From NCBI RefSeq assembly GCF_013122565.1, contig NZ_CP053258.1: a stretch of DNA of 64,000 bases. One strand, 5' to 3'. The translations under genes and the position numbers were made by a program. Origin of the DNA: Escherichia coli (lineage in GTDB: Bacteria; Pseudomonadota; Gammaproteobacteria; Enterobacterales; Enterobacteriaceae). The notes under the pieces were generated by a model. It was not told where the DNA came from, did no database searches, and saw nothing but the letters and a program-made list of their open reading frames with translations. Every line of letters starts with the position of its first letter. The stretch's first letter is position 1. This document shows positions 44,717 to 52,594 of this stretch, one piece after another.

Positions 44717-45607
44717 ATGATTATGGAAGGTACGCATCGTATTGATCTCAAGTTATTGCGCTATTTTCTTGCGGTCGCAGAAGAACTTCACTTTGGGCGG
44801 GCCGCTGCGCGGCTGAATATGTCGCAACCGCCATTAAGTATTCATATTAAAGATCTGGAGCAACAGTTGGGCACGTTGCTGTTCGTTCGTCATTCGCGCA
44901 GTGTGGCGCTCACTCATGCGGGGAAAATTTTACTGGAAGAGTCACGTCGTCTGCTGGCTAATGCCAGTCAGGCGTTGGCACGAGTAGAACAGATCGGTCG
45001 TGGTGAGGCAGGGCGCATTGAGCTGGGCGTGGTGGGAACCGCAATGTGGGGGCGAATGCGTCCGGTAATGCGGCGGTTTTTGAAAGAGTGCCCTAATGTT
45101 CATGTCTCATTTCGTGAAAAATCACCAGGGATGCAAATGGCATTGCTCGAGCGGCGGGAGCTGGACGCGGGTATCTGGCGGATGGCAATTGAACCCACGA
45201 CGGGATTTACCAGTCTGCGATTACACGAATCTTCGTTTTTGGTGGCGATACCGGAAGATCATCATCTGGCTTGCGAAAACGCTATCCCGTTAATGGCATT
45301 ACGCAATGAATACTTTGTGACGCTGCCATCGGTCCATTCCGACTGGGCGTTTTTACAGCGTGTCTGTCAGCAGGCAGGGTTTTCACCGATGATCGTTCGG
45401 GAGGCCGTAGAACCGCAAACCGTACTGGCGATGATCAGTATGGGGCTGGGTGTGACATTAATGGCAGATAGCTATGCCCAAATGAGCTGGCCGGGTGTGG
45501 TATTTCGTCCACTCGAGGAACGTATTCCAGCAGATTTGTATATTGTTTATGAACAGCAACAGGCAACACCAGCGCTGGAGAGATTAGTTAATGCTTTGAT
45601 AGCATGA
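44717..45607 (+). CDS. xapR: LysR-family regulator XapR
   Basis: 296-aa ORF with N-terminal LysR HTH (LKLLRYFLAVAEELHFGRAAARLNMSQPPLS); exact start uncertain. Confidence 0.85.
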   Translation: MIMEGTHRIDLKLLRYFLAVAEELHFGRAAARLNMSQPPLSIHIKDLEQQLGTLLFVRHSRSVALTHAGKILLEESRRLLANASQALARVEQIGRGEAGRIELGVVGTAMWGRMRPVMRRFLKECPNVHVSFREKSPGMQMALLERRELDAGIWRMAIEPTTGFTSLRLHESSFLVAIPEDHHLACENAIPLMALRNEYFVTLPSVHSDWAFLQRVCQQAGFSPMIVREAVEPQTVLAMISMGLGVTLMADSYAQMSWPGVVFRPLEERIPADLYIVYEQQQATPALERLVNALIA

Positions 45608-45626
45608 AAGAAGATATCGCAGATAG

Positions 45627-45654
45627 CAAAAAAGCGCCTTTAGGGCGCTTTTTT
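45627..45654. terminator. Bidirectional terminator (xapR on +, tRNA operon on -)
   Basis: aaaaaagcgcctttagggcgctttttt. Confidence 0.7.
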
Positions 45655-45658
45655 GCAT

Positions 45659-45734
45659 TGGTGGGTCGTGCAGGATTCGAACCTGCGACCAATTGATTAA
45701 AAGTCAACTGCTCTACCAACTGAGCTAACGACCC
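45659..45734 (-). tRNA. lysV: tRNA-Lys (anticodon UUU)
   Basis: Reverse complement folds as tRNA: GGGTCGTTAGCTCAGTTGG... anticodon loop CTTTTAA ...CCA. Confidence 0.95.
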
Positions 45735-45738
45735 GAAG

Positions 45739-45814
45739 TGGTGGGTGATGACGGGATCGAACCGCCGACCCCCTCCTTGTAAGGGAGGTGCTCTCCCAGC
45801 TGAGCTAATCACCC
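45739..45814 (-). tRNA. valY: tRNA-Val (anticodon UAC)
   Basis: Reverse complement GGGTGATTAGCTCAGCTGGGAGAGCACCTCCCTTACAAGGAGG...CCA; copy 1 of 3 identical genes. Confidence 0.95.
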
Positions 45815-45860
45815 ACTTCGGTACTTCACATTTTTACAAGAAATTTAGCTGGCGAGAAAG

Positions 45861-45936
45861 TGGTGGGTGATGACGGGATCGAACCGCCGACCCCCTCCTT
45901 GTAAGGGAGGTGCTCTCCCAGCTGAGCTAATCACCC
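45861..45936 (-). tRNA. valX: tRNA-Val (anticodon UAC)
   Basis: Identical copy 2. Confidence 0.95.
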
Positions 45937-45980
45937 ACTTCTCAATTTCTTGCTACACGGCGGAGACTACATAAAGTAGT

Positions 45981-46056
45981 TGGTGGGTGATGACGGGATC
46001 GAACCGCCGACCCCCTCCTTGTAAGGGAGGTGCTCTCCCAGCTGAGCTAATCACCC
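45981..46056 (-). tRNA. valU: tRNA-Val (anticodon UAC)
   Basis: Identical copy 3 (promoter-proximal on minus strand). Confidence 0.95.
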
Positions 46057-46314
46057 CCGCTGTGTGGAGTCGCATTATAGGGAGAGTTCAAAATGAGTCA
46101 ACGCATTTTCTAAAGAAATTGTTCGTTCGTCGTAAATTTAAGCAAGATGATCGCAAAACAGACCGTGTTGCGCAATTTGTCAACGAAAACAATAATGCGT
46201 AAGGTTGCAACCCGAACTACATTGAGGAATCAGGCGGGAGTGATAGAATATCGCCCACTCAATTTTTCCAGGATTTGCCGGTTGTCGGCATCTTTCTAAA
46301 CGTAAGGCCATTTC

Positions 46315-47730
46315 ATGAAAATCAAAACTCGCTTCGCGCCAAGCCCAACAGGCTATCTGCACGTTGGCGGCGCGCGTACTGCTCTTTACTCCTGGCTTTT
46401 TGCACGTAATCACGGCGGTGAGTTCGTGCTGCGTATTGAAGACACCGATCTTGAGCGTTCCACGCCGGAAGCTATCGAAGCCATTATGGATGGCATGAAC
46501 TGGCTGAGCCTGGAGTGGGATGAAGGTCCGTACTTCCAGACCAAACGTTTTGATCGCTACAACGCGGTGATCGATCAGATGCTGGAAGAGGGCACAGCTT
46601 ATAAATGCTATTGCTCTAAAGAGCGCCTGGAAGCGCTGCGCGAAGAGCAAATGGCGAAAGGTGAGAAGCCGCGTTATGACGGTCGCTGCCGCCACAGTCA
46701 TGAGCATCACGCTGATGATGAGCCGTGTGTCGTACGTTTTGCTAACCCGCAGGAAGGTTCTGTTGTTTTTGACGATCAGATCCGTGGTCCGATCGAGTTC
46801 AGCAACCAGGAACTGGACGATCTTATTATCCGCCGTACCGATGGTTCCCCAACCTATAACTTCTGTGTGGTTGTCGATGACTGGGATATGGAAATCACCC
46901 ACGTTATCCGTGGCGAAGACCATATCAACAACACGCCACGCCAGATCAACATTCTTAAGGCCCTGAAAGCGCCAGTGCCGGTTTACGCGCACGTTTCTAT
47001 GATCAACGGCGATGACGGTAAAAAACTGTCCAAACGTCACGGGGCGGTCAGCGTAATGCAGTATCGTGATGACGGTTATTTGCCAGAAGCACTGCTGAAC
47101 TATCTGGTGCGTCTGGGCTGGTCCCACGGCGATCAGGAAATCTTCACTCGTGAAGAGATGATCAAATACTTCACCCTGAATGCCGTCAGCAAATCTGCCA
47201 GTGCGTTCAACACCGACAAGCTGCTGTGGCTGAACCATCACTACATTAATGCGCTGCCGCCGGAGTATGTTGCTACTCACTTACAGTGGCACATTGAGCA
47301 GGAAAATATCGATACCCGTAACGGCCCGCAGCTGGCTGAGCTGGTGAAACTGCTGGGCGAACGCTGCAAGACGCTGAAAGAGATGGCACAGAGCTGCCGT
47401 TATTTCTACGAAGATTTTGCTGAGTTCGATGCCGACGCCGCGAAAAAACATCTGCGCCCAGTAGCGCGTCAGCCGCTGGAAGTGGTTCGTGACAAACTGA
47501 CTGCGATTACTGACTGGACCGCTGAAAACGTTCATCACGCTATTCAGGCGACGGCGGATGAGCTGGAAGTGGGTATGGGTAAAGTTGGTATGCCGCTGCG
47601 TGTCGCCGTAACCGGTGCGGGGCAGTCTCCGGCACTGGATGTTACCGTTCACGCAATCGGTAAGACCCGCAGTATCGAGCGTATCAACAAAGCTCTGGCT
47701 TTTATTGCGGAACGTGAAAATCAGCAGTAA
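46315..47730 (+). CDS. gltX: Glutamyl-tRNA synthetase GltX
   Basis: 471-aa class I aaRS ORF; HIGH-type (HVGGART) and KMSKS-type (KLSKR) motifs seen. Confidence 0.97.
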
Positions 47731-47748
47731 TTAGCGCATAAAAGATAA

Positions 47749-47778
47749 ACGGCAGGAGAAATACCCCTGCCGTTTTTT
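47749..47778. terminator. Bidirectional terminator between convergent gltX and yfeD
   Basis: aacggcaggagaaatacccctgccgtttttt. Confidence 0.7.
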
Positions 47779-47780
47779 AT

Positions 47781-48173
47781 TCATGCTGATTCATCTATGT
47801 CGAGACGAGCAAGGAAATTACGAATTCCTTCGCGTGACAAAAATTGCGCAACTTTTTCCTGCTCACTGTGAGTCATGTTGTCTATTGCGCTGATGATTTG
47901 CCGATAAGCAGGAGTGCGAATCCCCGGTGCGTATTCGGCAAGGGGTTCTTCGGCTTCCAGAAGCATCGGTGTGTTATGGAAGGCTGGCGTGTTCTGAATA
48001 AACTCGCAAACTTGCGTATCGACCAGAATAAGTCTGGCACGACCGCCTTTCACGCCGGGAAATTTTTCCGTTTTCCAGCCTTTTTCTCTGATCCAACGGT
48101 TAACAGTTTGTTTAGCCACACCGAGGCATTCAGCCAGTTCTTCGGTGGTCATTTTATTGCGTAATCTTTTCAT
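47781..48173 (-). CDS. yfeD: DUF1323 HTH protein YfeD
   Basis: 130-aa ORF; paralog of the adjacent yfeC (shared ...EELAECLGVAKQTVNRWIREKGW... core). Confidence 0.85.
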   Translation of the reverse strand: MKRLRNKMTTEELAECLGVAKQTVNRWIREKGWKTEKFPGVKGGRARLILVDTQVCEFIQNTPAFHNTPMLLEAEEPLAEYAPGIRTPAYRQIISAIDNMTHSEQEKVAQFLSREGIRNFLARLDIDESA

Positions 48174-48174
48174 A

Positions 48175-48519
48175 TTATTTGCTATCGCGAATCCCTAAGC
48201 GTTGTAACAATCCGATAATCCCTTCCCGCAGAAGCAAGGATGTAAACTGTTTTTGTTCAACTGGCGTCATCTCTTTCGCCAGTGTCACCAGCAATACTTC
48301 AAGCGGCGCATCACCAGAAAGGGCAGGCGTTTCTCCCTGACTTTCCGGACGTTCAGCATTGCGAATATATTCACGAACCTGTTCATTGACGTGAACCAGT
48401 CGGGCTTTGCCACCCTGGACGCCAGGTTTTGGTGACGTTGTCCAGCCTTCCTTGCGTACCCATTTATTAATGGTCTGGCGGCTATAGCCGGTCAGTCTGG
48501 CAAGTTCATCTGGCGTCAT
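48175..48519 (-). CDS. yfeC: DUF1323 HTH protein YfeC
   Basis: ORF 48175-48534; start placed at second Met (MTPDELARL...), upstream ATG at 48534 also possible. Confidence 0.8.
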   Translation of the reverse strand: MTPDELARLTGYSRQTINKWVRKEGWTTSPKPGVQGGKARLVHVNEQVREYIRNAERPESQGETPALSGDAPLEVLLVTLAKEMTPVEQKQFTSLLLREGIIGLLQRLGIRDSK

Positions 48520-48754
48520 CCTCTCCTTGAACATAACAATTCCCTGAATGTATGTGGGTCTATTAGTAGTTCATTTTATAACACCACTTTACAGGAAACC
48601 GTGACATGAATAACTACTGAATGCGAGCGGTTTTCCAAAATTGTTCATTTGCCTGATTTTTCAGCGATTGAAACTACACGTTGCAATTTGCCGTTGACAC
48701 ATTCGGACGGAATTCATATGATGCCGCCCGTCAACTCGACAAGCTTTACGTGAC

Positions 48755-48830
<76 letters not shown>

Positions 48831-48869
48831 AATTTTGCACCCAGCAAATTTGGTACGTAAACGCATCGT

Positions 48870-48945
<76 letters not shown>

Positions 48946-48952
48946 AATTTCA

Positions 48953-48980
48953 AACCCTCGCTGCAAAGCGGGGGTTTTTT
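48953..48980 (+). terminator. Terminator of the tRNA-Ala operon
   Basis: aaaccctcgctgcaaagcgggggtttttt. Confidence 0.65.
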
Positions 48981-49152
48981 GTCTCTGCTTTTTGCCGCTT
49001 TTGTAATACAGTCTATGTTCGGGTTAGCGCCGCCTGGTGAAAGCATCATTGGATGAAAAATCGGCAACAGGCTGGCCCCTGTTTGCTTCGCGATGCGAAT
49101 AAACTTATTATTTGTGTGCCTGAAAACCCCGATCAGTGAGAGTAGTGTACTC

Positions 49153-51342
49153 ATGTTTGTGGAGCATAACCTGATAAAAAATATCAAGATATTCACACTA
49201 GCGTTTACGCTCACCGTGGTACTTATTCAGCTATCCCGTTTTATTTCGCCACTTGCTATTATCCATTCCAGTTATATCTTTCTGGCGTGGATGCCACTGT
49301 GCGTAATGCTGTCAATCTTGTTTATCTTTGGCTGGCGCGGTGTCGTTCCCGTTTTATGCGGAATGTTTTGCACCAATCTGTGGAACTTTCATCTCTCTTT
49401 TTTACAGACTGCGGTCATGCTCGGCAGCCAGACGTTTGTCGTGTTGTGTGCCTGCGCAATATTACGCTGGCAGCTAGGGACGCGTTGGCGTTATGGATTG
49501 ACCAGCCGATATGTCTGGCAACGTCTGTTCTGGCTTGGTTTGGTGACGCCGATCGGCATCAAATGCAGCATGTATCTTGTGGGGAGCTTCTTTGATTTCC
49601 CGCTAAAGATTTCCACCTTTTTCGGCGATGCGGATGCCATTTTCACGGTCGTTGATTTGCTAAGCCTTTTCACCGCGGTGCTGATTTACAACATGCTTTT
49701 CTACTATCTCACTCGCATGATTGTAAGTCCCCACTTTGCGCAGATATTGTGGCGCAGGGATATCGCTCCGTCGTTGGGCAAAGAGAAACGCGCATTTACC
49801 TTAAGCTGGCTGGCAGCGTTAAGCGTGCTGCTACTTCTGTTGTGCACACCTTATGAAAACGACTTTATTGCCGGTTACCTGGTACCCGTTTTCTTCATCA
49901 TCTTTACCCTCGGGGTCGGTAAGCTTCGCTATCCGTTTTTAAATCTCACCTGGGCTGTTTCAACGCTTTGCCTGCTGAATTACAACCAGAACTTTTTACA
50001 AGGGGTGGAAACCGAATATTCGCTGGCATTTATTCTCGCGGTGCTGATTTCCTTTAGCGTTTGCCTGCTCTATATGGTGCGCATTTATCATCGCAGTGAA
50101 TGGCTTAATCGACGCTGGCATTTGCAGGCGCTGACCGATCCGTTAACGCTCCTACCCAACTTTCGTGCGTTGGAACAAGCACCGGAGCAAGAGGTGGGCA
50201 AGAGTTTTTGCTGCCTGCGCATTGATAATCTTGAGTTTATGAGTCGTCATTACGGGTTAATGATGCGCGTTCACTGTATCCGCTCAATTTACCGTACGCT
50301 GCTGCCGTTGATGCAGGAAAACGAAAAGTTGTATCAATTGCCGGGCAGTGAACTGCTGTTAGTGCTGAGCGGGCCGGAAACGGAAGGGCGACTCCAGCAT
50401 ATGGTTAACATCCTGAATAGTCGGCAAATTCACTGGAACAATACCGGGCTGGATATGGGCTATGGTGCTGCCTGGGGGCGTTTTGATGGAAATCAGGAAA
50501 CCCTGCAACCCTTGTTGGGGCAGTTAAGCTGGCTGGCGGAGCAATCCTGCGCACATCATCATGTGCTGGCGCTGGATAGCAGAGAGGAGATGGTTTCCGG
50601 GCAGACCACTAAACAAGTGCTATTGCTGAATACCATTCGCGCGGCGTTAGATCAGGGGGATTTGCTGCTCTACGCCCAGCCCATTCGCAACAAAGAGGGT
50701 GAAGGTTATGATGAGATCCTCGCGCGACTGAAATATGACGGCGGCATTATGACCCCGGATAAGTTTCTGCCCCTTATTGCTCAGTTTAACCTTAGCGCGC
50801 GTTTTGATTTGCAAGTGCTGGAATCCCTGTTGAAGTGGCTTGCAACACACCCTTGCGACAAAAAAGGTCCACGCTTTTCAGTCAATTTAATGCCGCTCAC
50901 GCTGCTGCAAAAGAATATTGCCGGGCGGATTATTCGTCTGTTTAAGCGTTATCACATCTCCCCGCAGGCGGTCATTCTTGAGATCACCGAGGAGCAGGCG
51001 TTTTCTAACGCAGAAAGCAGCATGTACAACATCGAGCAGCTGCATAAGTTTGGTTTCCGGATTGCGATTGATGACTTTGGCACCGGCTATGCCAACTACG
51101 AACGGTTAAAGCGTTTGCAGGCTGATATCATCAAAATTGATGGCGTCTTTGTGAAAGATATCGTCACGAACACGCTGGATGCGATGATTGTGAGATCAAT
51201 TACCGATCTGGCGAAAGCGAAGTCATTGAGTGTGGTCGCGGAGTTTGTCGAGACGCAACAGCAGCAGGCGCTATTGCATAAGCTCGGGGTGCAATATCTG
51301 CAAGGGTATTTGATTGGTCGCCCGCAGCCATTAGCTGATTAA
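49153..51342 (+). CDS. pdeA: c-di-GMP phosphodiesterase PdeA (YfeA): MASE1 membrane sensor, degenerate GGDEF, EAL
   Basis: Track ORF 49093-51342 trimmed to ATG 49153 (MFVEHNLIKNIKIF...), 729 aa; EAL-domain motifs (EIL..., DDFGTGYANY) seen. Confidence 0.9.
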   Translation: MFVEHNLIKNIKIFTLAFTLTVVLIQLSRFISPLAIIHSSYIFLAWMPLCVMLSILFIFGWRGVVPVLCGMFCTNLWNFHLSFLQTAVMLGSQTFVVLCACAILRWQLGTRWRYGLTSRYVWQRLFWLGLVTPIGIKCSMYLVGSFFDFPLKISTFFGDADAIFTVVDLLSLFTAVLIYNMLFYYLTRMIVSPHFAQILWRRDIAPSLGKEKRAFTLSWLAALSVLLLLLCTPYENDFIAGYLVPVFFIIFTLGVGKLRYPFLNLTWAVSTLCLLNYNQNFLQGVETEYSLAFILAVLISFSVCLLYMVRIYHRSEWLNRRWHLQALTDPLTLLPNFRALEQAPEQEVGKSFCCLRIDNLEFMSRHYGLMMRVHCIRSIYRTLLPLMQENEKLYQLPGSELLLVLSGPETEGRLQHMVNILNSRQIHWNNTGLDMGYGAAWGRFDGNQETLQPLLGQLSWLAEQSCAHHHVLALDSREEMVSGQTTKQVLLLNTIRAALDQGDLLLYAQPIRNKEGEGYDEILARLKYDGGIMTPDKFLPLIAQFNLSARFDLQVLESLLKWLATHPCDKKGPRFSVNLMPLTLLQKNIAGRIIRLFKRYHISPQAVILEITEEQAFSNAESSMYNIEQLHKFGFRIAIDDFGTGYANYERLKRLQADIIKIDGVFVKDIVTNTLDAMIVRSITDLAKAKSLSVVAEFVETQQQQALLHKLGVQYLQGYLIGRPQPLAD

Positions 51343-51350
51343 CAGGCGTA

Positions 51351-51382
51351 AAAAAGCCGGGGAATTATCCCCGGCTTTTTTA
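51351..51382. terminator. Bidirectional terminator between convergent pdeA and nupC
   Basis: aaaaaagccggggaattatccccggctttttt. Confidence 0.75.
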
Positions 51383-51391
51383 TGTATGGTC

Positions 51392-52594
51392 TTACAGCAC
51401 CAGTGCTGCGATTGACGCCGACAGCACACTCACCAGGGTAGAGCCGTAAACCAGTTTCAGACCGAAGCGAGAAACCACGTTACCTTGCTCTTCATTCAGG
51501 CCTTTAACTGCACCTGCGATAATCCCGATTGATGAGAAGTTAGCGAAGGAAACCAGGAACACAGAGATGATGCCTTCAGCACGCGGAGAGAGCGTGGAAG
51601 CAATTTTCTGCAGATCCATCATCGCAACGAACTCGTTGGAAACCAGTTTGGTCGCCATGATACTGCCCACTTGCAGTGCTTCACTGGAAGGAACACCCAT
51701 CACCCATGCAATCGGATAGAAGATGTAGCCCAGGATGCCCTGGAAGGAGATGCTGTAGCCAAACCAGCCAGTCACGGTGGCAAACAGTGCGTTCAGCGCG
51801 GCGATCAGGGCGATAAAGCCAATCAGCATTGCGGCAACGATAATGGCAACTTTGAAACCTGCCAGAATGTATTCACCCAGCATTTCGAAGAAGCTCTGAC
51901 CTTCGTGCAGGTTGGACATCTGAATGTTTTCTTCACTGGCATCAACACGGTAAGGGTTGATCAGCGACAGCACGATAAAGGTGCTGAACATGTTAAGTAC
52001 CAGCGCCGCAACGACATATTTCGGCTCCAGCATGGTCATGTATGCACCAACGATGGACATAGAAACGGTGGACATCGCCGTTGCTGCCATGGTGTACATA
52101 CGATTGCGGGAGATTTTGCCGAGGATATCTTTATAGGCAATAAAGTTTTCAGACTGACCCAGAATCAGGGAGCTGACGGCGTTAAAGGATTCCAGTTTGC
52201 CCATACCGTTGACTTTGGAGAGCAGGAAACCAATTGCGCGGATAATCACCGGCAACACGCGAATGTGTTGGAGAATACCGATCAGTGCAGAGATAAAGAC
52301 GATTGGGCACAGCACTTTCAGGAAGAAGAATGCCAGGCCTTGATCATTCATGCTACCAAAGACGAAGTTAGTCCCTTCGTTGGCAAATCCGAGCAGTTTT
52401 TCGAACATTTCGGAGAAGCCTTTCACGAAGCCTAAACCAACGTCGGAGTTCAGGAAGAACCACGCCAGTAACACTTCGATAACAAGCAGTTGAATAACAT
52501 AACGGATACGAATTTTTTTGCGGTCGCTGCTTACCAGCAGTGCGAGAATCGCAACAACGGCAAGTGCCAGTACAAAATGAAGGACGCGGTCCAT
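51392..52594 (-). CDS. nupC: Concentrative nucleoside transporter NupC (CNT family)
   Basis: Track ORF trimmed to ATG 52594 ([14 protein letters not shown]...), 400 aa. Confidence 0.93.

Follow-up and report, generated by a model that had tools for sequence, protein, structure and literature searches.

Two small minus-strand genes, yfeD and yfeC, lie between gltX and a pair of tRNA-Ala(GGC) genes in the 64,000-nucleotide stretch of Escherichia coli DNA that we analysed (hereafter, the window; contig NZ_CP053258.1). The features of the locus, in window coordinates, are as follows.

46315-47730, plus strand: gltX, convergent with yfeD
47747-47775, no strand: hairpin between gltX and yfeD, from a terminator scan (12-pair stem, T-runs on both sides)
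47781-48173, minus strand: yfeD coding sequence, a 130-residue ORF (PF07037, 206 bits; HTH_17, 31.3 bits); the downstream, faster-evolving paralog
48174, minus strand: yfeC/yfeD junction (TAA-T-ATG), a single nucleotide, read from the sequence
48175-48534, minus strand: yfeC coding sequence, a 119-residue ORF (PF07037, 174 bits), annotated in K-12
48535-48754, no strand: divergent control region, from yfeC to the proximal tRNA-Ala gene (220 nt)
48575-48583, minus strand: candidate extended -10 element (TGT-TATAAA) of a yfeC-yfeD promoter, from sequence and conservation
48694-48722, plus strand: tRNA-Ala operon promoter (TTGACA, 17 nt, TATGAT; 11/12 matches in a promoter scan)
48755-48830, plus strand: tRNA-Ala(GGC), proximal copy (ARAGORN, Rfam, K-12 annotation)
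48870-48945, plus strand: tRNA-Ala(GGC), distal copy (ARAGORN, Rfam, K-12 annotation)
48952-48977: terminator 3' of the tRNA-Ala pair (terminator scan)

Both protein-coding genes are already known: yfeC and yfeD are the annotated E. coli K-12 genes b2398 and b2399, the tRNA-Ala(GGC) pair corresponds to alaW and alaX in K-12, and the RefSeq annotation of the stretch gives yfeD, yfeC, two tRNA-Ala genes and gltX. The neighbours in K-12 (NC_000913.3) are identical, i.e. pdeA, the two tRNA-Ala genes, yfeC, yfeD, gltX and the valU operon, with the K-12 record running in the opposite orientation to the window at this locus. The initial annotation of the window, which was made from the letters alone, described two small ORFs one nucleotide apart, located between the gltX terminator and alaX/alaW. 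Both observations are borne out: yfeC stops at 48175-48177 and yfeD starts with the ATG at 48171-48173, with 48174 as the sole spacer base, and the pair is bounded by the 47747-47775 hairpin on one side and by the tRNA genes (48755-48945) on the other.

The 1-nt junction is present in 53 of the 80 loci that constitute the best 80 of 298 relatives (described below), the remainder ranging from -20 to +19 nt, and its retention argues for conserved translational coupling; yfeC and yfeD may thus be coupled via the stop-1 nt-ATG junction. The yfeC start in the K-12 annotation is the second ATG (window 48519), which gives a protein of 114 residues, and both ATGs, together with the intervening AAGGA, are kept in an alignment of 20 genera. 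The hairpin at 47747-47775, with which an inverted repeat (I3) coincides, is probably a bidirectional terminator of the convergent gltX and yfeD genes. Across the 20-genus alignment the control region has a mean column identity of 81%, and the spacer between yfeC and the tRNA genes stays near 219 nt in the related loci. A consensus-based promoter scan called no yfeC promoter; the sequence TGnTATAAA(A)T is nearly invariant over the 20 genera, and it is from this cross-genus conservation, not from a score, that we infer the position of the yfeC-yfeD promoter at 48575-48583. The tRNA-Ala promoter is invariant in the same alignment and is followed by a GC-rich discriminator. An Rfam scan of 45000-52000 gave tRNAs alone above threshold.

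The shared peptide core that the initial annotation took as a sign of paralogy is confirmed, in that both products fit every element of the proposed pattern and BLASTP aligns YfeC and YfeD with 36% identity over 128 residues (E 6e-27). Each protein matches the whole of PF07037 'YfeC-like', formerly DUF1323 (profile 1-122 of 122, cutoff 22.9), with 206.1 bits for YfeD and 174.1 bits for YfeC, and identity with the K-12 proteins is 98% for YfeC and 94% for YfeD, i.e. these are the same genes. The predicted domains map to the window as follows.

48358-48519, minus strand: YfeC N-terminal winged helix-turn-helix, residues 6-59, excisionase/MerR-like
48199-48303, minus strand: YfeC C-terminal two-helix hairpin, residues 78-112, from the model; putative oligomerisation element
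47991-48155, minus strand: YfeD winged helix-turn-helix, residues about 7-61, from the fused model and the alignment with YfeC
47805-47912, minus strand: YfeD C-terminal two-helix hairpin, residues about 88-123, from the fused model

An AlphaFold2 model of YfeC, calculated on a 27-sequence alignment (mean pLDDT 86), has residues 5-59 in the order strand-helix-helix-strand-strand-helix, then a low-confidence linker and two C-terminal helices (residues 78-88 and 91-112; pLDDT about 89-93), which form a hairpin bearing the conserved MTxxEQ...REGIxGxLxRLGI motif. A YfeC-(GGGGS)6-YfeD fusion, folded with a genome-paired alignment of 29 pairs, gave a pTM of 0.33 and lower pLDDT values, too low to bear on hetero-association; within it the order of secondary structure elements in YfeD is that of YfeC (helices at 237-247 and 251-272 of the construct). 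The fold matches of the YfeC N-terminal domain are headed by Pukovnik Xis, then the DNA-binding domain of pSK1 Par, BldC and RacA, with several MerR proteins and small terminase subunits further down; the Mu repressor domain (27% identity), TorI, Tn916 Xis and an AlpA-family excisionase are also among them. The structure search returned no match for the C-terminal hairpin, and a sequence search of solved structures returned no relative of YfeC or YfeD. The C-terminal hairpin probably mediates oligomerisation.

Among the profiles, HTH_17 (cutoff 27) matches YfeD (31.3 bits) and falls short for YfeC (20.9 bits), and the excisionase model TIGR01764 (cutoff 28.8) gives 27.5 bits for YfeD and 18.7 bits for YfeC. 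Both proteins are below the MerR_1 cutoff of 21.6 (YfeD 12.3 bits, YfeC 12.6 bits). On the basis of the predicted fold, we assign the DNA-binding domain to the excisionase/MerR-like winged helices. The likeness to MerR is overstated in the product name that RefSeq gives to yfeD, 'MerR family'; MerR family members have a long antiparallel coiled-coil helix and an effector-binding region, which are absent from the YfeC model. Unlike excisionase-type proteins (phage Xis, TorI, AlpA), YfeC and YfeD are extended by a linker and a C-terminal helical hairpin, and belong to the conserved core genes, without an integrase neighbour or a mobile element. They likewise differ from the Mu c repressor and the N-terminal 'HTH Mu-type' domain of MuA, with HTH_Tnp_Mu_1 at 15.2 bits, below its cutoff of 23.3, and with the transposition context of those proteins absent at yfeC-yfeD.

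At least 80% of the locus (1.3-kb query) is present in 5,248 of 5,426 complete E. coli genomes. A wider scan, with a 10-sequence alignment as the query and one genome per species, gave 298 relatives, of which the best 80 were kept; these 80 are all YfeC orthologs and come from about 30 Enterobacteriaceae genera, more distant members having been traced individually. In most of the best 80 loci pdeA, one to three tRNA-Ala(GGC) genes, yfeC, yfeD, gltX and the valU operon follow one another in this order. Among the exceptions, Kosakonia has gltX missing downstream with the tRNAs and yfeC-yfeD retained, an Enterobacter-like genome carries three copies, a stray copy is present in a different context in one genome, and some related loci are incomplete, their contigs ending early. 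More diverged members occur in Cedecea, Cronobacter, Franconibacter and Atlantibacter. In Chimaeribacter (Yersiniaceae) there is a single copy, convergent with gltX, the two tRNA-Ala genes being located farther upstream; in a second single-copy case a yfeC-like gene adjoins gltX on another contig. The distribution of the pair relative to the tRNA-Ala genes had been proposed as a check on its nature, and we find it conserved across the Enterobacteriaceae, not limited to a narrow clade within the family, with the adjacency kept. The YfeC-like family is very small and nearly confined to the Enterobacteriaceae, a search of 1.84 billion representatives having given no more than 82 clusters at 50% identity (E <= 0.001), of which many are fragments.

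In a neighbour-joining tree a tight, short-branched YfeC clade is set against a long-branched YfeD clade, with the second copies of Atlantibacter, Cedecea and Entomohabitans branching close to the YfeC/YfeD split. The clade pattern fits one old tandem duplication, then unequal rates, and the single copies, between tRNA-Ala and gltX in Chimaeribacter and beside gltX on the other contig, would represent the state before it. At family-level distances dN differs by about 2-fold (0.4-0.5 for yfeD versus 0.2 for yfeC). Pairwise dN/dS values are about 0.03-0.2 for yfeC and yfeD, and both genes are, as judged by such ratios, under purifying selection.

The sole unexpected element at the locus is a dimorphism of yfeD haplotypes within E. 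coli, which concerns its 3' half.

47700-48000, no strand: segment of deep allelic divergence, comprising the last gltX codons, the terminator and yfeD codons 59-130

The window and K-12 differ at 48 positions in these 300 nt, compared with about 1% over the rest of 5.6 kb, and the divergence stops abruptly near 48000, midway through yfeD, such that the 5' half of the gene is 100% identical and the 3' half 83%. Over a 270-nt segment, identity among complete E. coli genomes is bimodal (2,240 records at 95% or above, 3,184 at 80-90% and 2 between), which corresponds to haplotype shares of about 41% and 59%. The YfeD proteins of K-12 and the window differ at 8 amino acids, all at residues 72-103, i.e. 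in the linker and the first C-terminal helix, with dS 0.97 and dN 0.068 over codons 59-130. The K-12-type haplotype is close to that of E. whittamii and two other Escherichia lineages (dS 0.11-0.14). The window-type haplotype is far from all the Escherichia lineages compared, including E. albertii (dS 0.93), the protein variant of which it shares (dN 0.024) with synonymous sites near saturation. A protein nearly the same as that of E. albertii, despite a dS of 0.93, is what balancing selection would produce; it is, in our judgement, very unlikely that two ancient haplotypes are held in this way by selection on oligomerisation or partner specificities, and the divergence could alternatively be a neutral relic of one old imported recombination tract. 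Were the dimorphism selected, it would offer a handle on the role of the C-terminal hairpin.

The view that the function of the pair is unknown, to which the initial annotation added the suggestion of ChIP or DNA-binding assays, is outdated. ChIP-exo on tagged YfeC and YfeD has already been published, with 50 binding-site rows for YfeC and 43 for YfeD (Gao 2021, PMC8464067), as have RNA-seq and phenotypes for yfeC deletion (PMC8464067, PMC5847654). The YfeC motif is reported as a 'TTC-rich inverted repeat separated by 6 nt' (E 7e-10), 40% of the YfeC sites are intragenic, and yfeC deletion changed the expression of 205 genes, with 16 of the 20 genes that were both bound and changed being repressed; in the K-12 deletion yfeD rose by log2 4.3, i.e. 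about 20-fold (PMC8464067). As cited in PMC8464067, an earlier screen found that yfeC deletion altered extracellular DNA, and a K1 strain lacking yfeC was weaker in colonising the neonatal rat small intestine and less lethal (PMC5847654). In an EHEC yfeC mutant LEE1 expression was unaffected. The literature searched contained no DNA-binding experiment with purified YfeC or YfeD.

The published ChIP-exo data appear noisy: very highly expressed genes (lpp, rpmH, rpmB, rpsU, rplU and the tRNA) account for several YfeC peaks, and two YfeC peaks recur for other tagged factors at the same start or full coordinates (3332954, with YfeD; 3889534, with YdhB). Highly transcribed genes often give ChIP artefacts. 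Just one site has identical coordinates in the YfeC and YfeD lists, which argues against an obligate YfeC-YfeD heterodimer on DNA. When the motif was re-derived with a Gibbs sampler from 18 published ChIP-exo sites of YfeC in K-12, the resulting motifs were weak (8-9 bits); the sequence TTCCGGAA is common to the three strongest YfeC sites. The window has no exact copy of TTCCGGAA, and copies with 1-2 mismatches near yfeCD are not clearly above background; the yfeC promoter contains no convincing operator, and the ChIP-exo lists report no peak at the yfeC promoter. The rise of yfeD in the yfeC deletion, a single RNA-seq value, suggests that YfeC may autorepress the yfeC-yfeD operon; polarity of the deletion construct could also account for that rise. 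A tag at the C-terminus of yfeC would, moreover, disturb its junction with yfeD.

The proximity of the pair to tRNA and aminoacyl-tRNA synthetase genes led the initial annotation to raise the possibility of a local regulatory role, i.e. that YfeC and YfeD act from the shared divergent region to control gltX, the tRNA-Ala(GGC) operon, or both. The related loci retain the divergence from the tRNA-Ala promoter, and the spacer of ~219 nt is well conserved over 20 genera; in Kosakonia, where adjacency to gltX is lost, tRNA-Ala is still beside the pair; and one YfeC ChIP-exo peak falls at the 3' terminus of the distal tRNA-Ala gene.

About 48923-48956, no strand: YfeC ChIP-exo peak no. 33 (site 2516052-2516085 in NC_000913.2, +1978 offset)

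This peak, which is labelled 'yfeC' in the list, covers the final ~23 nt of the distal tRNA-Ala and the beginning of its terminator, roughly 400 nt from the yfeC start; in its conversion to window coordinates the offsets were checked by means of TTCCGGAA in the three strongest footprints and by the K-12 annotation, with an uncertainty of ~2 nt. It is, however, a modest peak (signal/noise 12.8) without a TTCCGGAA-like sequence, on a highly transcribed gene. Published sites of YfeC and YfeD are absent from both the alaW and the gltX promoter, none of the listed YfeD sites is close to the locus, and the names 'gltX' and 'alaX' are absent from all the supplementary files of PMC8464067, including the differential-expression lists. 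The conservation of the spacer is explicable by the two promoters alone, and the single yfeC-like gene of Chimaeribacter is separated from the tRNAs by another gene. What stands of the proposal is the conserved divergent arrangement and spacer; as to regulation, the case is weak at best. We consider local control unlikely, and give it the weight that we do because the 220-nt control region is unusually well conserved (81% over 20 genera). The same small size, adjacency and 1-nt junction of the two genes, together with an HTH of the type typical of antitoxins, can be read as those of a toxin-antitoxin module, and RASTA-Bacteria (2007) lists yfeD/yfeC as a high-confidence new TA pair (PMC2374986; so cited in PMC5847654). 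Such a module is extremely unlikely, given that the two products are paralogs with one fold, neither having a toxin domain; that yfeC deletions have been obtained in K-12, K1 and EHEC, in K-12 despite yfeD being ~20-fold up; and that inheritance is vertical and syntenic, not patchy. No toxin family scored above its cutoff for either protein, the best being YdaS_toxin (18.8 and 14.2 bits versus a cutoff of 30), and a defence-system library gave generic HTH-level hits alone, none of them meaningful.

The fold comparisons bear on two further readings. The top matches after Xis are Par, BldC and RacA, all small MerR-like proteins that coat or bridge DNA, and YfeC and YfeD might, by analogy, be architectural or nucleoid-associated DNA-binding proteins, not sequence-specific factors; consistent with this are the 40% share of intragenic YfeC sites (PMC8464067), the weakness of the motif that we recovered, and the diffuse nature of the published phenotypes (gut colonisation and the release of extracellular DNA). 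Against such a role are the discreteness of the reported peaks, a few dozen with no broad coverage, and an inverted-repeat motif at E 7e-10 (PMC8464067), and we regard it as improbable. The resemblance of the N-terminal domain to excisionases of phages and transposons (Pukovnik Xis, TorI, Tn916 Xis, AlpA) and to the Mu repressor also bears on the suggestion, made in the initial annotation, that the pair is a remnant of an old integration at the tRNA locus. On that reading yfeC and yfeD would be domesticated excisionase or phage-repressor genes. Added to the resemblance in fold are the HTH_17 match of YfeD, the TIGR01764 score just under its cutoff, a weak profile match to the phage family phrog_4151 (E 1e-7) and the adjacent tRNA genes. 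Integrases act at tRNA 3' ends, and the pair is located 5' of the tRNAs, on the side of their promoter. Direct repeats derived from a tRNA, and att-like repeats, are absent from the locus, where the second tRNA gene is the only tRNA repeat; no integrase ORF is present among the neighbours of the pair; and the GC content of yfeC-yfeD (0.46-0.51) is similar to that of the flanks. A tblastn search of 50,697 phage records gave no hit for the pair, and comparison with viral structures gave no match at E <= 0.001, the weak matches spanning the generic ~60-residue domain alone. Hits in a plasmid collection are megabase-sized records, or small records with both genes, and look like mislabelled chromosome or chromosomal fragments. 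A tRNA-targeted genomic island has 3'-end insertion, a duplicated tRNA segment, a patchy distribution and atypical composition, none of which is seen at yfeC-yfeD, a locus that is present in essentially all E. coli (5,248/5,426) and syntenic in about 30 genera. With its promoter-side position, absence of repeats and integrase, ordinary GC content and vertical synteny, the integration-remnant suggestion is not supported; a more remote version, in which the domain derived from mobile elements before the Enterobacteriaceae arose, is doubtful.

Overall, we think it probable that yfeC and yfeD form a vertically inherited two-gene operon encoding paralogous minor transcription factors of the YfeC-like family. 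According to this account, transcription of the operon would start at a conserved promoter, divergent from that of the tRNA-Ala genes; the N-terminal winged helix of each product would contact DNA and, following a variable linker, the C-terminal hairpin would oligomerise. YfeC and YfeD would act, mostly as repressors, at a few dozen largely non-overlapping sites, and would not be devoted to regulating the tRNA and synthetase genes beside them. The pair would go back to a single old tandem duplication, of a gene already located between tRNA-Ala(GGC) and gltX, after which YfeC diverged slowly and YfeD about twice as fast. The elements that come from the present analysis or from the literature are the paralogy, the family, the predicted fold, the synteny, the purifying selection, the in vivo association with DNA and the changes in expression on yfeC deletion.

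Given that the genes are annotated, that the family is in Pfam and that the proposed ChIP experiment is published, the discovery value of these results is small. What they add are arguments against reading the pair as an integration remnant or a toxin-antitoxin module, caution with respect to the published target lists, and the structural assignment of the predicted DNA-binding domain to the excisionase/MerR-like winged helices. They also provide an evolutionary frame for YfeC and YfeD, as members of a tiny family with what appears to be one duplication at a fixed chromosomal address, followed by evolution at unequal rates.

In E. coli, the stretch from the end of gltX into the 3' half of yfeD is polymorphic, occurring as two deeply diverged haplotypes. 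It is listed below with four other features of the locus, in window coordinates.

47700-48000, two-haplotype segment: the end of gltX, the terminator and yfeD codons 59-130
48255-48271 and 48504-48520, the two copies of a 17-nt direct repeat within yfeC
~48616-48636, inverted repeat TGCGAG-N4-CTCGCA (columns ~136-152 of the 20-genus alignment, A3)
48655-48671, conserved block TTTTTCAGCGATTGA in the 20-genus alignment
49093-51342, pdeA (yfeA) ORF, 749 aa from the first ATG

Comparison of the window with K-12 reveals ~16% divergence in the segment and ~1% in its flanks, with the divergent stretch ending abruptly at a sharp breakpoint in mid-yfeD. Among 5,426 complete E. coli genomes, segment identity is split, being at least 95% in 2,240 records and 80-90% in 3,184, with almost none between. 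Over yfeD codons 59-130, the haplotypes, as represented by the window and K-12, differ with dS ~1 and dN 0.07. The window-type haplotype encodes an E. albertii-like YfeD protein variant, yet its dS from E. albertii is ~0.9.

The copies of the yfeC direct repeat match at 16 of 17 nucleotides and translate as MTPVE and MTPDE, one opening the last C-terminal helix of YfeC and the other its N-terminal domain. An MTxxE motif begins both elements throughout the YfeC-like family, and the twin motifs may be either a common helix cap or a vestige of internal duplication. The number of family copies per genome varies; in Enterobacter sp. BIGb0383 (L050:6000-7140) three copies lie in tandem at the locus, and another genome has a lone copy (L097:4001-4399) near pth and far from gltX, with acetyltransferase and DUF2583 genes on either side.

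Alignment A3, which spans the divergent control region, reveals that the inverted repeat, located between the yfeC and tRNA-Ala promoters, is kept in most Enterobacteriaceae genera, its left arm being degenerate in Escherichia, Salmonella and Citrobacter; the repeat is a possible binding site for some factor. TTTTTCAGCGATTGA, near-invariant across the 20 genera, has its centre at about -66 relative to the inferred tRNA-Ala start and, by its position, could be an FIS or UP element of the kind known from stable-RNA promoters. Beyond the tRNA-Ala terminator, the pdeA ORF starts after ~150 nt and, when read from the first ATG, is 20 codons longer than the K-12 annotation (729 aa).

In the published ChIP-exo lists (Gao 2021; PMC8464067, Dataset S4; K-12 coordinates), two YfeC peaks recur in other tagged strains, i.e. 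that at 3889534-3889558, for which there is a YdhB entry with identical coordinates, and that at 3332954, the same start being listed for YfeD. Several of the 'nearest gene' labels mismatch their coordinates; the strongest 'chaA'-labelled YfeC site actually lies between chaB and chaC in K-12. Caution is needed with these target lists.
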